Position numbers and translations under genes: made by a program | Part shown: positions 21,795 to 28,627 of the stretch, piece by piece | How the letters are laid out: every line of letters begins with the position of its first letter | Numbering within the stretch: the first letter of the stretch is position 1 | Assembly: GCA_020632155.1 (NCBI GenBank) | Contig: JACKGE010000001.1 | Coordinates: 92,011-156,010 of the forward strand | Reading direction: 5' to 3' | Source of the DNA: Candidatus Nomurabacteria bacterium | Lineage (GTDB): Bacteria > Patescibacteriota > Minisyncoccia > Phycocordibacterales > UBA918 | Length of the DNA stretch: 64,000 nucleotides | Notes under the pieces: model-generated | Told to the model about the DNA's origin: nothing | Database searches by the model: none | What the model saw: only the letters and a program-made list of their open reading frames with translations

Positions 21795-21934
21795 AGATTG
21801 TAGTAACGAATAAACGACTCAAAAAGAGCCTTGTATCGCAGTGCGATTAACGGTCACACAACGACATCATCTTGTTCTTTTTTGTGCGTACCGCTGCTGC
21901 CAGGCTTTAGTACACCGAGGTTTGGAACGGCCGT

Positions 21935-21963
21935 ATACTACGGGAAACTAAGGGGATTGTCAA
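21935..21963 (-). promoter_or_regulatory. putative sigma70-like promoter for rpsS block (TTGACA-17-TAGTAT on minus strand)
   Basis: needed because a terminator follows rplB; sequence-only prediction. Confidence 0.4.
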
Positions 21964-22029
21964 TGTTCTTGCTGAAACGCGCCGGACATGTTTTATTGGT
22001 TATAGAGAACATGTTCTAGGGAGGCTTCA

Positions 22030-22467
22030 ATGAAGGAACATACGCTCCGTCGAATCACTGTGGCCGTGTTTTTTGCACCTTTTTTGGTGAGTTGTCAGTA
22101 TTGCTACGAACTACAGACAGAGATGGCCCCGCAAATGATAGCGGGTAAACCATGGACACCTGCAATGCAAGCTTTTTGGTTTAGGTACACCCAAACCAAC
22201 AGCGTGATGATGGTGTCATTGGCATTATTGATTGTTCTACATTTCTGGAAGTCAGGATCAAGGTCTCGAGCCGCAGATCTGGTGAGATATCTGTACTTCG
22301 GTCTACTTGAAGGACTTACTATTGCCGTTGCGACATACACCTACGGAATCAGTGTGGTATTCACCACGACAACCGCAGAGTGGTTTTCCTACTTTTTGGT
22401 GAGCTGGGGCCTTTATATTGGCCATTTGCAGAGCCACGAACTTTCTCGACTTCTACCCAAAAACTAA
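22030..22467 (+). CDS. hypothetical membrane protein (145 aa), opposite strand, inserted between rplB and rpsS
   Basis: SD GGGAGG 6 nt before ATG; about 4 TM. Confidence 0.55.
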   Translation: MKEHTLRRITVAVFFAPFLVSCQYCYELQTEMAPQMIAGKPWTPAMQAFWFRYTQTNSVMMVSLALLIVLHFWKSGSRSRAADLVRYLYFGLLEGLTIAVATYTYGISVVFTTTTAEWFSYFLVSWGLYIGHLQSHELSRLLPKN

Positions 22468-22480
22468 GGAGGCGAATAGC

Positions 22481-22675
22481 ATGTGTGATCTTGTTCATTC
22501 CATGCATATCAAGGCTTGCGGTGGCGAATATGACGGGAAACACCCCATCGCCGAGCTCAAGAAAAAAGCAAAAAGAGGCGACGCCAACGCAAAAAGCGCA
22601 CTGCTCCTAAGGGCGCAGCTCGGCACATCTGATTCGCATGAGGCGGCAAAAGCAGTGCAAGAACTCGGCCTCTGA
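22481..22675 (+). CDS. hypothetical small protein (64 aa)
   Basis: AAGGAGG-8nt-ATG (MCDLVHSMHIKACGG...); internal start of ORF 22418. Confidence 0.45.
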   Translation: MCDLVHSMHIKACGGEYDGKHPIAELKKKAKRGDANAKSALLLRAQLGTSDSHEAAKAVQELGL

Positions 22676-22725
22676 AGACAAGGGGTTGAAAAAACTAATA
22701 GACTCGGCGAGGAATCGCCGGGTTT

Positions 22726-22764
22726 TCTGTTACCTAGACAAAAGCCGCGCCCTATGGGCGCGGC
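22726..22764 (+). terminator. 18-bp perfect hairpin (TAGACAAAAGCCGCGCCC-TAT-GGGCGCGGCTTTTGTCTA)
   Basis: perfect inverted repeat after small + strand gene. Confidence 0.55.
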
Positions 22765-22796
22765 TTTTGTCTAGGCATAGTGATACGCTTACTAAT

Positions 22797-22833
22797 AATC
22801 AAAAAACCTGCGCAAGGCGCAGGTTTTTTGATT
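22797..22833. terminator. bidirectional terminator abutting the rplB stop codon (AATCAAAAAACCTGCGC-AAG-GCGCAGGTTTTTTGATT)
   Basis: 17-bp stem with A6/T6 flanks; would terminate rplC-rplB transcription before rpsS. Confidence 0.65.
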
Positions 22834-24764: not shown

Positions 24765-25385
24765 CTAGACGCTACGAACTTCTACTAATGTCCCTCGTCG
24801 ACCTGGGATTGCTCCCTTAATGAGGATGATATTTTGGTCTGGATTCACCTGCAGAACCTTAAGGTTCTTAACCGTGATACGGTCGCCACCCATGCGGCCA
24901 GCCATGCGGAGGCCTTTGATGACGCGACCAAAACCGGTTGAACCGATTGAACCCGGTTCACGGTGCGAGTGCTTCTGTCCGTGTGAGGCGCGACCACCGG
25001 CAAAACCGTGACGCTTAACCACACCCTGAAAGCCCTTACCTTTGGAAATAGCTGAAACCGCTACGACATCGCCAACCGCAAAGATAGACGCATCGATAGC
25101 CTGTCCCTCACTAAATCCATCAAGTGATTCCGCTTGTCCTTGGCGAACACGGAATTCTTTGACGAAACGCTTGGCGCCACCTTGGTGACCGAGCTCAGCC
25201 TTAGAAAGGCGGTGCTCTTTTTGCTCACCGGCAGCAACCTGAACGGCCTCATAACCGTCCTTCTCAGCCGTCTTAAGAGCGGTGACCACAAGTGGGTCCA
25301 CTTTAAGCACTGTTGCTGGAGAGGCGGTGCCGGTCTCATCGAAGACCTGCGTCATGCCGTCCTTGGTTCCTAAAATAAATTTCAT
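24765..25385 (-). CDS. rplC: 50S ribosomal protein L3
   Basis: 206 aa L3. Confidence 0.92.
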   Translation of the reverse strand: MKFILGTKDGMTQVFDETGTASPATVLKVDPLVVTALKTAEKDGYEAVQVAAGEQKEHRLSKAELGHQGGAKRFVKEFRVRQGQAESLDGFSEGQAIDASIFAVGDVVAVSAISKGKGFQGVVKRHGFAGGRASHGQKHSHREPGSIGSTGFGRVIKGLRMAGRMGGDRITVKNLKVLQVNPDQNIILIKGAIPGRRGTLVEVRSV

Positions 25386-25594
25386 TTACTTTGGACTATC
25401 CTAATAAATTCTTATTAAGACCCAAACAAAATCGCACTTGGCAAGTCGCGAGCACAGCTCACGCATTACCAAGCGCGATTTTGTGCCCATTGGTTCTCAG
25501 GAATGCAGGCACTCCCTCACCGAACATAGGTCTTTAATAAGCTGGTGGTAGTATACGGATTTTGGACAAATTAGCAAGTTGCGCACCAATGTGA

Positions 25595-25624
25595 TTGACA
25601 AAAGCCTCATTGGAGCGGTATGGT
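25595..25624 (+). promoter_or_regulatory. putative promoter TTGACA-18-TATGGT driving the small peptide ORF
   Basis: sequence-only. Confidence 0.35.
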
Positions 25625-25634
25625 ACGAAGTAGG

Positions 25635-25691
25635 AGGGGTCAGCATGCGGACAGACCTTCTCTTGATCCTCGTGATCTTTTTGTACATATT
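25635..25691 (+). CDS. 18-aa hydrophobic peptide MRTDLLLILVIFLYIFRA (type I toxin-like, Ibs/Sib style) between rpsJ and rplC
   Basis: AGGAGGGG SD 6 nt upstream of ATG, own promoter, downstream terminator; too short for ORF track. Confidence 0.3.
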
Positions 25692-25842
25692 CCGCGCATA
25701 AGGAAGCTGCGATGAAAAGCAGGAATTGTGAAAGGATTTTGACAACCTTCGGATTCCTCCTCAACTATCGCAACCCTCATTGGTAGGACTACGAAGCCTG
25801 CCAAAGACCGCTAGGCCGGATAGCCTGTGAGATAAAGAAGCT

Positions 25843-25889
25843 CTGCGATGTAACCACCAACGTGTCACGTCGCAGGGCTTTTCTTTTTG
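25843..25889 (+). terminator. plus-strand hairpin + T-run (CTGCGATG...CGTCGCAG GGCTTTTCTTTTTG)
   Basis: 8-bp stem with G.T wobble, T-rich tail. Confidence 0.5.
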
Positions 25890-25895
25890 AAAATA

Positions 25896-25935
25896 AACCA
25901 AAACCCCGCGGCTGAAGCCGCGGGGTTTTGGTTTT
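25896..25935. terminator. bidirectional GC-rich terminator (AAACCCCGCGGC-TGAA-GCCGCGGGGTTTTGGTTTT) downstream of rpsJ
   Basis: 9-bp GC stem with A/T runs both sides; separates rpsJ from rplC. Confidence 0.65.
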
Positions 25936-26076
25936 GGCAACTAAGTTGAACTATTCTGAGGAAAAATGGATGAGATGCAAGGCACCGGAGGAAAATAATG
26001 TGAGTGCGGCTACTAGCCGAGCGAACATTATTTTACCGATCGGTAACAAAGCAGGTCGCCATTTTTACCAGAATAA

Positions 26077-26433
26077 CTACATCATCTTGACGTCAATAGA
26101 CACCCCAGATGGCAGAGAGAGGTTGGTCAGTGCTTCCACGACCTTTCCGCTCGGGTTCATGATGTCGATGACACGCTTATGCATGCGCATCTCAAACTGT
26201 TCTCGCGCATCCTTATGAACGAAGGTCGAGCGATTTACCGTGTACTTTTTGATCTCAGTTGGAAGCGGAATCGGACCAACAACCTTGGCGTCAAAACGCA
26301 AGGCGGTGTCGATGATCTGCTTTACACTGGTATCGAGGATCTTGTGTTCATAAGCACGAACACGAATACGGAGTTTTTGAATCTCTCCAGCAGGCGCCTT
26401 GGCGCTGCTTTTTGTTGTTTTAGTAGTTGCCAT
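26077..26433 (-). CDS. rpsJ: 30S ribosomal protein S10 (N-terminal extension)
   Basis: ...IRVRAYEHKILDTSVKQIIDTALRFDAKVVGPIPLPT... Confidence 0.9.
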   Translation of the reverse strand: MATTKTTKSSAKAPAGEIQKLRIRVRAYEHKILDTSVKQIIDTALRFDAKVVGPIPLPTEIKKYTVNRSTFVHKDAREQFEMRMHKRVIDIMNPSGKVVEALTNLSLPSGVSIDVKMM

Positions 26434-26538
26434 ATTTTAAGGTTTTAGTTTATAGGTTTAAGGTTTCAGTGTTTGGTGTAAGAAACGCCAAAGCATTTCT
26501 GCAACCATCAAACCTTATCCCTGTCCTTTACATTGTTG
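26434..26538. repeat. heptamer-repeat element copy C3 (diverged) in tuf-rpsJ intergenic leader
   Basis: AAGGTTT TAGTTTA TAGGTTT AAGGTTT CAGTGTT - hairpin AGAAACGCCAAAGCATTTCT. Confidence 0.55.
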
Positions 26539-27729
26539 CTAGGCAACAATTTTAGTTACCACACCGGCACCAACAGTCTTACCACCCTCACGGATAGCAA
26601 AGCTCTGCTGTTCCTCAAGTGCTACTGGAGCTACAAGCTTAACCTTAAAGGTCGCAGTATCACCAGGCATAACCATCTCAACACCATCAGCGAGGCTTAC
26701 CTCACCGGTAACGTCAGTGGTACGAATGTAGAACTGTGGCTTGTAACCGGTAAAGAATGGAGTGTGACGACCACCTTCGTCTTTCGCGAGGACGTATACC
26801 TCAGCTTCAAACTCAGTGTGTGGGGTCACGCTGCCAGGAGCAGAAATGACTTGACCACGGTGAACGTCTTCCTTCTTTGTACCACGGAGCAAGATACCAG
26901 CGTTGTCACCAGCCTGAGCTGAATCAAGTGACTTGTTGAACATTTCAACACCGGTAACAGTGGTCTTAGTAGTGTCTTTGATACCAACGATCTCACACTC
27001 ATCACCAACCTTGACTTGACCGCGTTCTACACGACCGGTTACTACCGTACCGCGACCTTCAATTGAGAAGATGTCCTCGATTGGCATCAAGAATGGCTTG
27101 TCGAGTTCACGAACTGGCATTGGGAAGTATGAATCCATCGCATCAACGAGCTCGAGCACCTTAGCACCCCAGTCTCCATTTGGCTCCTCAAGAGCCTTAA
27201 GACCTGAACCCTTGATGATCGGAGCATCAGCACCTTCATAACCATTGGCAGTAAGGAGTTCACGAAGTTCCTCCTCAACCAACATGATCATGTCCTCATC
27301 GTCGACCATGTCGCACTTGTTAAGGAATACGATGATCTTTGGCACACCCACCTGCTTTGCAAGGAGTACGTGCTCACGAGTCTGAGGCATAGCACCATCA
27401 GTAGCTGCTACTACGAGCACAGCGCCGTCCATCTGGGCAGCACCAGTGATCATGTTCTTGATGTAGTCAGCGTGCCCTGGAGCGTCAATATGAGCGTAGT
27501 GACGATTTGGTGTCCAGTACTCTGAGTGAGAAAGAGAAATAGTAATACCTCGCGCCTTCTCTTCTGGCGCTTTGTCGATGTCCTCAACAGCCTTTACGTT
27601 AGCGCCGTAGTCGCCGCCTTTGGCATTGAGAACCTGAAGGATAGCAGCAGTGAGCGTAGTCTTACCATGGTCTACGTGACCAATGGTACCTACGTTCATG
27701 TGCGGCTTTGAACGATCAAAATCTGACAT
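26539..27729 (-). CDS. tuf: elongation factor Tu
   Basis: [30 protein letters not shown]...; start at internal Met of ORF 26539..27762. Confidence 0.95.
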
Positions 27730-28030
27730 AAACTTTAAGTTAATGTAAGTAATAATCCGCACACAGCTGCTTTTTTAATGCATAAAAAAGCCGTGCACGT
27801 GCACTCAGGGAGAGTGGCGCGAGAACGACACACTCTCTTTGGGCACACATACGTGTGAAAGAGCATTGATATTTACTCCCACACAGCAAAATAGCTGTTA
27901 GCGGTGGCGGTATGGTACATGAGCCGCCTTAAGATTGCAAGTGTGTTTCGTACGCCGCTTGTTGTTTGACAGCTTCCGTTTCTCTGGTACTTTAAATCAC
28001 AATTTGGCACCAAACTTAAGGAGGTTAGCC

Positions 28031-28627
28031 ATGTTCTTCAGATTGCTTCAGGCAGTTTTGTCTGCTCTTCTGTTCAGCACTGCTGCAAGCTATGCTGCGC
28101 AAAAGCAGTTGGCTATCGGCGGGCCCACGTCGCAGCCAATTGGTCACTATGGATTCTGTCAGCGCCTGCCGGCAGAGTGCCGGTCGAATGCGAAAGATTA
28201 CAGGCTGGTCTTGACGCGGGGAATGCTGCTACAAATAAGCGGAATCAACCGGCGCGTAAACGAGTCAGTCCGTCCTCGCAACGACATCGATGTCTACGGA
28301 CGCGATGAGTGGTGGGCTTTGCCGAGCGATGTCGGTGACTGCGAGGACTACGCGCTGCTCAAGCGGCAACTATTGCACCAAGCCGGCATACCGCTATCTA
28401 GCCTTCTAATTGGCGTAGTGCGACAGAAAAATGGCGATGGTCACGCAGTGCTGGTCGTTCGAACAACCAGAGGCAACTTGGTCCTCGATAACCTGACGGA
28501 CAAAATTCGCCCATGGGATGAGGTTCCTTACCGTTGGCTCAAGGTCCAAGCGCCAGAACACAGCGGCAAGTGGCGCACCGTGAATCTCGTTGATCTTGAC
28601 CCAGCCACCGCCTCACTGTCGGAGTAA
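28031..28627 (+). CDS. secreted transglutaminase-like cysteine protease (BTLCP/LapG-like, COG3672)
   Basis: AAGGAGG SD; signal peptide MFFRLLQAVLSALLFSTAASYA; YGRDEWWALPSDVGDCEDYALLKRQLL...DGHAVLVVRTTRGNLVLDN matches the BTLCP Cys-His-Asp core; higher GC than flanks. Confidence 0.7.
   Translation: MFFRLLQAVLSALLFSTAASYAAQKQLAIGGPTSQPIGHYGFCQRLPAECRSNAKDYRLVLTRGMLLQISGINRRVNESVRPRNDIDVYGRDEWWALPSDVGDCEDYALLKRQLLHQAGIPLSSLLIGVVRQKNGDGHAVLVVRTTRGNLVLDNLTDKIRPWDEVPYRWLKVQAPEHSGKWRTVNLVDLDPATASLSE

Follow-up and report, generated by a model that had tools for sequence, protein, structure and literature searches.

The 64-kb stretch of DNA analyzed here, called the window below, comes from a genome of the Patescibacteria (Candidate Phyla Radiation, CPR), class Paceibacteria, and in it the gap between the ribosomal protein genes rpsJ and rplC holds a plus-strand unit at 25595-25889 that has its own promoter-like sequence, a folded transcript region and an intrinsic terminator. 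Very probably, this unit is under selection and independently transcribed. With moderate confidence, we read it from the sequence as a small structured mRNA, possibly a dual-function small RNA (sRNA), for a fast-evolving micro-protein that would be made from the second of two start sites. A first-pass annotation of the same DNA had assigned the unit to an 18-amino-acid (18-aa) hydrophobic peptide at the first start site and had likened it to the type I membrane toxins; that frame is probably a by-product of the folded RNA and not a gene.

A recurrent promoter-to-terminator unit in the rpsJ-rplC gap

The genes tuf (26539-27762), rpsJ (26077-26433) and rplC (24765-25385, followed by rplD, rplW and rplB) all lie on the minus strand of the window, so that the 18-aa open reading frame (ORF) is antisense to the operon and divergent from rplC. 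The gap between rpsJ and rplC measures 691 nt (25386-26076). It is shorter than 130 nt in most bacteria of the comparison set; many Paceibacteria have a gap of 0.3-1.5 kb filled with unrelated ORFs, or no rpsJ within 3 kb. The best species-level rplC matches were metagenome-assembled genomes labelled Paceibacteria, Nomurabacteria and Kaiserbacteria, with 60-66% identity. When the DNA similarity of the whole gap was compared with 80 species-representative and 80 metagenome loci, only the rplC leader region (~25390-25590) was found to be conserved at the distance of the species representatives, immediately upstream of rplC in each case. To reach closer relatives, rplC homologs with 74-86% identity and the contigs that carry them were used, which gave seven lineages with the plus-strand unit for comparison: the window, L169, L167 (with L168), L179 (to L181), L175, L177 and L182. 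The six carrier relatives, with rplC identities of 74-79%, are few, related and all metagenome contigs, that of L175 having 3.8x coverage. Among contigs of the same strain the gap sequence is identical.

The promoter-like sequence, TTGACA-N18-TATGGT, was already pointed out in the first-pass annotation and is present on the plus strand at 25595..25624 (TTGACA at 25595-25600 and TATGGT at 25619-25624), matching 10 of the 12 consensus positions and standing back-to-back with the rplC promoter. A consensus scan gave three promoter-like sites in the gap, against 0.6 +/- 0.7 in shuffled sequences. A site of the form TTGCAA/TTGCCA/TTGCTA-N17-18-TATGGT/TATGTT/TAAGAT is found in the window and five relatives at a distance of 210-231 nt from the rplC ATG, and in L182 the TATGGT box is retained and the -35 element is weak. 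With a transcription start placed 7 nt after the -10 box, the predicted plus-strand transcript would run from 25631 to 25889, i.e. ~260 nt. Its minimum free energy (MFE) in the window is -86.5 kcal/mol, with z = -3.2 relative to shuffles, and the homologous predicted transcripts of L169 and L167 have z = -2.6 and z = -4.4, respectively.

The MFE fold places the intrinsic terminator on the plus strand at 25836..25889, with a long hairpin (25836-25882) and the T-run UUUUCUUUUU (25880-25888), which bears out the terminator proposed earlier at 25843..25889. A simple terminator scanner missed it because the hairpin has an internal loop. Each of the six relatives has a hairpin and T-run on the same strand, different in sequence in each. 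The second, GC-rich bidirectional terminator of the first-pass annotation was likewise recovered, as an inverted repeat of 95% over 40 nt at ~25895-25935 that is read on both strands and serves rpsJ on the minus strand, and homologous hairpins stand downstream of rpsJ in L179, L175, L177 and L182. The claim of a separate promoter-to-terminator unit in this gap is supported by conservation, as the layout recurs in the six other lineages: a promoter, a region of ~215-300 nt, a terminator on the same strand and then the bidirectional rpsJ terminator. Parts of it were also called independently by a scanner, which reported the promoter in the window and L177 and the same-strand terminators in L169 and L175.

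DNA profile searches retrieved only the closest carriers, L169 and L167, and a covariance model built from four lineages had as its best other match the held-out L177, in the correct place and weakly scored. Since the profiles find the close carriers only and the layout is kept in seven lineages, the sequence has diverged widely while the layout persists. No Rfam family matched the unit, either in scans of the window and the six loci at gathering score or in a permissive scan of 25000-26500, where the matches were to terminator hairpins; 6S RNA, signal recognition particle RNA, transfer-messenger RNA, RNase P, riboswitches and ribosomal-protein leaders gave no score at the gathering threshold. 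Nowhere in the 64 kb did a tRNA gene turn up, nor did any Rfam family reach its gathering score. A literature check together with the Rfam scans found no small RNA, small protein or type I toxin described at this position in CPR/Patescibacteria.

Two interleaved helices at the 5' end

The helices that can form in the 5' region were enumerated for each lineage with our own script and compared with dinucleotide shuffles. Two of them, A and B, ranked highest in each of the seven lineages and fell at equivalent positions, with differing sequences. In the window the 5' arm of helix A, UAGGAGGGG (25631..25639, plus strand), pairs with CUUCUCUUG at 25657..25665, a CU-rich arm that also supplies the Leu codons of the 18-aa ORF. 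In all the lineages (7/7) the first nucleotide of helix A is among nt 1-4 of the predicted transcript, and the helix joins a purine-rich 5' end to a CU-rich stretch, the pairs being UAGGAGGGG/CUUCUCUUG in the window and GAGGGG/CUCCUU, GAGGGG/CCUCUU, UAGAAAGC/GCUUUCUA, GAGUC/GACUC, GGAGAGGC/GCUUCUCU and CGGGUCCU/AGGGCUCG elsewhere. Several of the pairs in helix A are G-U, so it can form only on plus-strand RNA, and the functional strand is the plus strand.

Helix B in the window is formed by UGCGGA (25646..25651), which overlaps the AUG of the 18-aa ORF, and UCCGCG (25691..25696), both on the plus strand. Its core, GCGGA/UCCGC, is shared by the window and L175; the counterparts are CGGGC/GCCCG in L167, CGAGCA/UGCUCG in L169 and L179 (also written UCGAGCA/UGCUCGG), UGACAGGCU/AGCCUGUCA in L177 and CGCGGG/CCCGUG in L182. 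The fractions of shuffles that reached the observed combined score in the seven lineages were 9.6%, 1.8%, 2.9%, 0%, 3.6%, 0.2% and 1.4%. The arms follow one another in the order A5'-B5'-A3'-B3', which predicts either an H-type pseudoknot or two mutually exclusive folds. Counting pairs by column in a MAFFT alignment of the seven 5' domains was abandoned because the helices of L175, L177 and L182 were not put in register, and the enumeration for each sequence and the covariance model of four lineages were used instead.

The second start and its reading frame

Just 3' of helix B there is a second start, the context of which is kept in 7/7 lineages. In the window it reads AAGGAAG-N5-AUG (25700..25714, plus strand), the first part being a tract like a Shine-Dalgarno (SD) sequence. 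In six lineages the AUG lies at transcript position 63-87 with a purine-rich, SD-like tract before it, and the context is AUGARA in six; in L182 it is AUGUGC, preceded by GGAGAG. The predicted unpaired probabilities in the window are 0.53 and 0.69 for this second SD and AUG, relative to an average of 0.39 over the RNA, and 0.19 and 0.11 for the SD and AUG that the first-pass annotation had favored. The second AUG opens a plus-strand ORF of 24 codons, MKSRNCERILTTFGFLLNYRNPHW (25712..25786), which we regard as the candidate translated product; its counterparts have 27, 28, 31, 26 and 29 codons in five lineages and 9 codons in L175. Directly after its stop codon comes a conserved motif, GACUACGAAG (25787..25796, plus strand), found as N-CUACGA-N-G in the window, L169, L167 and L179. 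The CGAAG in this motif can pair with CUUCG (25747-25751) inside the ORF, a pairing that is seen in the alignment fold.

The clearest sign of coding comes from the pair L177 and L182, where conservation within the unit is highest in the second ORF, with identities of 0.73/0.62/0.38 at codon positions 1/2/3, indels of 6 and 3 nt and a one-sided Fisher p = 0.014. For L169 and L167 the corresponding identities are 0.67/0.70/0.52 (p = 0.11), an indel of 2 nt lies close to the end, and the pair of the window and L175 shows no codon-periodic pattern in the second ORF.

Based on these features, the following model can be put forth. A self-contained small gene on the plus strand of a narrow Paceibacteria clade, back-to-back with the rplC promoter, would be transcribed from TTGACA-18-TATGGT with a start near 25631 and would end at the terminator at 25836-25889, giving an RNA of ~260 nt. 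Its first ~70 nt would fold into the interleaved helices A and B and so tie up AGGAGGGG and the AUG of the 18-aa frame. The SD-like tract and AUG directly 3' of helix B (25700-25714) would then be the more accessible start, opening the 24-codon ORF, and the 5' fold may set the stability of the RNA and/or the choice of the start codon that is open to ribosomes.

A number of points weigh against this model. The transcript start is a position predicted by sequence criteria. The helix statistics come from our own script and from seven related, non-independent sequences, and helix enumeration does not distinguish between a pseudoknot and mutually exclusive folds. The second-ORF peptide was not recognizable across sub-groups or in the window, as judged by leave-one-out profiles and own-frame alignments, and that of the window had no protein-level match in the relatives. 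An excess in frame 0 was obtained for the L169-L167 pair only, L175 has no more than its nine codons at the second start, and since frame +2 likewise has long open stretches, the openness of a frame is uninformative as a test of coding. The 5' untranslated region (UTR) of L169 and L167, with 79% identity, exceeds the ORF in conservation, which favors a function at the RNA level. Finally, the closest relative, L165 (86% rplC identity), lacks the unit, as do L176, L178 and L183, and the unit is therefore dispensable; the more distant relatives that retain the rplC leader lack it as well.

Two further candidates were tried and rejected. A micro-protein motif, GG..TF.Y..PD, had been seen by eye in the second-ORF peptides, and neither leave-one-out hidden Markov models nor frame-specific Smith-Waterman alignments supported it beyond the closest pairs. 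A three-element switch, in which the 3' arm of helix A would pair with the 5' end or with the second SD, did no better than shuffled controls, and a simple anti-SD/anti-anti-SD switch is thus unsupported.

Alternative explanations for the unit

Dual-function sRNAs, which also encode a small protein, include SgrS/SgrT, RNAIII/hld and SR1/SR1P. The unit resembles them as a structured RNA in the range of ~200-500 nt with its own promoter and terminator, a short ORF and a peptide that evolves faster than the RNA architecture; it has no homology with any of them. A dual-function or a purely non-coding sRNA is equally compatible with the unit. A purely non-coding one, i.e. a structured RNA of ~260 nt that acts as RNA and in which the short frames, the second ORF included, are incidental, is possible, though on the unlikely side. 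It would explain why the most conserved features, namely the promoter, helices A and B and the terminator, belong to the RNA level, why the 5' region of L169 and L167 is conserved above the ORF, why the peptides are not conserved across sub-groups and why L175 keeps the architecture with so short a frame, and the folding z of -2.6 to -4.4 fits it. However, it leaves the SD-like tract and AUG at the same place in 7/7 lineages, and the third-position bias and in-frame indels of L177 and L182, without a role; moreover, there was no match to a known RNA family, and complementarity to the rplC leader was at chance level.

Among the known systems, the architecture of the unit appears by analogy to be closest to the structured type I toxin mRNAs such as timP/RyfA. 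The timP (RyfA) RNA was first annotated as non-coding, and a pseudoknot or structural switch in its 5' UTR controls initiation (PMC11228461, PMC13000454). Like timP of the enterobacteria, which is paired with TimR, the unit would be a stand-alone RNA of a few hundred nt with a short ORF and a narrow phylogenetic range, and the interleaved helices predicted in 7/7 lineages recall the pseudoknot or alternative folds of the timP 5' UTR that decide ribosome access. On the defining points the analogy fails: TimP is a small inner-membrane toxin, whereas the ORF at the conserved position here is not hydrophobic, and neither a counterpart of the TimR antitoxin nor any sequence or Rfam match to the system was found here. 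It can be asked whether the unit is nevertheless a toxin mRNA of this kind, with the second ORF encoding the toxin, its translation controlled by the 5' pseudoknot or switch, and an antitoxin RNA made from another locus. An RNA of ~260-300 nt once taken for non-coding, with a 5' pseudoknot or alternative folds and a small ORF, is what such a module would look like (PMC11228461, PMC13000454), and the narrow, patchy distribution and fast-evolving peptide are in keeping with it. We consider it quite improbable all the same, given that the second-ORF peptides are not membrane-like (grand average of hydropathy, GRAVY, of -0.63 to +0.18, with the longest strictly hydrophobic run being 1-5 residues), that promoter scans of four lineages yielded no antitoxin candidate, that Rfam, RyfA included, gave no match and that the simple anti-SD switch was no better than shuffles. 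Pairing of the unit RNA with the divergent rplC leader in the manner of TimR was also tried and rejected, with z from -1.4 to +1.1 and no excess complementarity.

A further comparison is with ribosome standby on the tisB mRNA, where a 5' element recruits the 30S subunit to a sequestered ribosome-binding site ~100 nt downstream after processing of the mRNA (PMC7708055). A structured element close to the 5' end, including a pseudoknot, upstream of a short ORF is common to tisB (PMC7708055) and the unit, but a switch based on the CU-rich arm and the second SD did not pass its shuffle control here. That the unit amounts to a new CPR regulatory gene (a pseudoknot-gated micro-protein mRNA or dual-function sRNA), or else to the first timP-style toxin module described in the CPR, is in our estimate rather unlikely; as a new regulatory gene it would be transcribed back-to-back with the rplC promoter and therefore be co-regulated with ribosomal-protein synthesis.

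It could also be argued that the gap is a hot spot for recombination or insertion and the unit a non-functional remnant, i.e. decaying cargo in which the promoter-like and hairpin features are retained through descent alone. The unrelated cargo at the rpsJ-rplC junction in different relatives, the absence of the unit from the closest relative and the many metagenome contigs that break inside the gap would all agree with this. Against it, the helices, start context, promoter position and terminator are kept with compensating changes despite a divergence that puts the more distant carriers beyond the reach of DNA profiles, which points to selection rather than recent common descent and makes a remnant hard to credit. 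A clade-conserved structured RNA, very probably transcribed independently, in the otherwise near-universal rpsJ-rplC junction offers a concrete object for the study of RNA-level regulation in ultra-small bacteria.

The 18-aa frame and the type I toxin reading

The 18-aa hydrophobic ORF, MRTDLLLILVIFLYIFRA, exists as an entry of the ORF list on the plus strand at 25645..25698 with its stop at 25699-25701, i.e. 10 nt downstream of the 25635..25691 given for it in the first-pass annotation. The SD-like sequence before it, AGGAGGGG, is likewise present (25632-25639), with a spacing of 5 nt to the ATG and not 6. We judge this frame not to be a functional product. Its GRAVY is 1.75, with an uncharged run of 12 residues, but 4 of the 340 ATG-ORFs of 15-40 aa in the window have a GRAVY at least as high, so that its hydrophobicity by itself could be due to chance. 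Five of the six relatives (L169, L167, L179, L177 and L182) have no ATG there, the region GCATGCGG being replaced by GAAT-CGAG or GCATACGG, or missing; in the sixth, L175, the ATG is kept without an SD and begins a non-hydrophobic frame of 41 codons. By tblastn the 18-aa ORF had no protein-level match in the relatives, nor did any ORF of the gap on either strand, the minus-strand TTG ORFs included, and the peptide is thus not conserved in any related genome compared. L169 reads 'LLLIL' from the equivalent stretch without any start codon, and even in lineages with no ORF after it the SD tract persists as one arm of a helix. When the CU/U-rich arm and the loop are read in one particular frame, they give the Leu, Ile and Phe codons of the 18-aa ORF. 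With its SD tract and AUG tied up in helices A and B, the frame is most likely a by-product of the CU/U-rich strand.

Ibs/Sib, ShoB/OhsC and Ldr/Rdl are the systems to which the unit had been compared, and in the window alone there is a likeness, namely a very hydrophobic ORF of 18 aa and a strong SD-like tract buried in structure. Unlike in these systems, the ORF is unconserved in the homologous units, no antisense promoter and no Rfam match were found, and there are no tandem or dispersed copies in the 64 kb. The minus-strand TTG ORFs, which the first-pass annotation had taken as a sign of an antisense antitoxin RNA, do exist (25497..25745 and 25534..25764), but a consensus scan of the window, L169, L175 and L177 found no promoter-like site opposing the unit, although a weak or atypical promoter could escape such a scan. 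No Rfam toxin or antitoxin family, RyfA included, was reached at gathering score in the window and the six loci; a permissive match to ohsC had 19.8 bits, relative to a threshold of 50, and covered the terminator hairpin only. Paralogous copies, which are common though not universal in type I systems and had been suggested as a check on the toxin assignment, were sought within the 64-kb window by blastn, nhmmer and the covariance model, and none was found. With the ATG lost and the frame explained by the helices, and with no opposing promoter, Rfam match or second copy, the type I toxin reading is not supported. It is very improbable that the 18-aa peptide is a membrane toxin of the Ibs/ShoB/Ldr kind with an overlapping antisense sRNA antitoxin, even though the ORF is short and very hydrophobic, structure prediction has its SD and AUG sequestered as in type I toxin mRNAs (PMC11228461, PMC7708055) and the chromosomal region around the unit is variable. 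These findings also call for caution with type I toxin calls made from sequence alone, since a strong SD and a hydrophobic mini-ORF can arise from a purine-rich arm that pairs with a CU-rich arm.

The neighboring rplC promoter and leader

The first-pass annotation had also named a possibility that would undo its own reading, i.e. that the region belongs to a structured rplC leader only. This is not the case, as the ORF at 25645-25701 is upstream of the rplC promoter and the helices need the G-U pairs of the plus strand. The promoter of the rplC operon, TTGCTA-N16-TATACT, is at 25550..25577 on the minus strand and is not part of the unit; in the form TTGC.A-N16/17-TATACT it is nearly invariant in 14 aligned lineages. 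The unit, standing upstream of this conserved promoter, is outside the leader.

The leader itself, a structured rplC 5' region of ~160 nt on the minus strand (25386..25543), is likewise separate from the unit. Two blocks in it are invariant, AAAGACCUAYGU and ACCAAUGGGCAC, and base pairs of its long hairpin covary (UA:6/CG:6/AU:1; CG:9/AU:2/GC:1/UA:1). A profile of the leader matched ~18 Paceibacteria lineages, always just upstream of rplC, and in the window it matched 25389-25582 only; there was no Rfam match for the leader. The E. coli S10 leader, which is bound by L4, is a ribosomal-protein autoregulatory leader. The minus-strand stretch at 25386-25543, and it alone, is similar to the S10-type leaders in being a conserved structured 5' leader directly upstream of rplC-rplD; unlike them it has no Rfam family, and the plus-strand unit differs in lying upstream of the rplC promoter and on the opposite strand. 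We therefore put the leader forth as a candidate ribosomal-protein autoregulatory element in an operon that is cut off from rpsJ by a terminator in this clade, which makes regulation of the L3-L4-L23-L2 genes testable here. The motif after the second-ORF stop (25787-25796), written as (G/A)(A/C)CUACGA, resembles the GACCUAYGU block of the leader (25525-25536, minus strand), most closely in L179 (GACCUACGAUGU and GACCUAUGUUCG); the resemblance may be a coincidence or a shared protein-binding site.

The variable gap and nearby observations

The rpsJ-rplC junction, near-universal elsewhere, is split here, with rpsJ having its own bidirectional terminator and rplC its own promoter. In L004, L005, L165, L176, L178 and L183 the gap holds other cargo, with ORFs of 210, 263, 364+234, 379 and 2041 aa or membrane-protein genes, the latter transcribed divergently in L183. 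A Pfam search of the neighboring inserted ORFs gave no family. Many independent metagenome contigs end in or beside the gap, several of them within palindromes: L163 (starting at window position 25819), L164 (starting at 25751), L167/L168, L170-L174 and L180/L181. This suggests strain-level variability or repeats that break assembly.

Repeats of several kinds were seen in and around the gap. Between the terminators of the unit and of rpsJ, L169 and L179 carry one and the same AT-rich perfect palindrome, AATCACTGTATTAATCCATGGATTAATACAGTGATT, and L167 has a different one, TACGCAATTAATTTCGAAATTAATTGCGTA, likewise between the two terminators. In the window an imperfect inverted repeat of 43 nt is located just downstream of rpsJ (25992-26034). 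L182 has an insertion of ~75 nt in the rplC promoter region (~2700-2790) with inverted-repeat flanks, CCCAACCC...GGGTTGGG, and L183 one of ~140 nt between the leader and the rplC start (~2840-2970); both look like small mobile or hairpin elements.

The operon is interrupted again between rplB and rpsS (window 21795-22831) by ORFs on the opposite, plus strand, at 22030-22467 (145 aa, membrane-like) and 22481-22675 (64 aa), for which there was no Pfam family; the relatives likewise carry small opposite-strand ORFs at the rplB-rpsS junction. Directly upstream of tuf, at 27935-28627 on the plus strand, there is a transglutaminase-like cysteine peptidase of the BTLCP type (Pfam PF06035, E = 7e-58), in a stretch with a G+C content of ~0.55-0.58, above that of its surroundings. 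Lastly, the rpsJ of the window has an N-terminal extension of ~17 residues (MATTKTTKSSAKAPAGE...; 26383-26433), which is outside the tblastn matches in the relatives.

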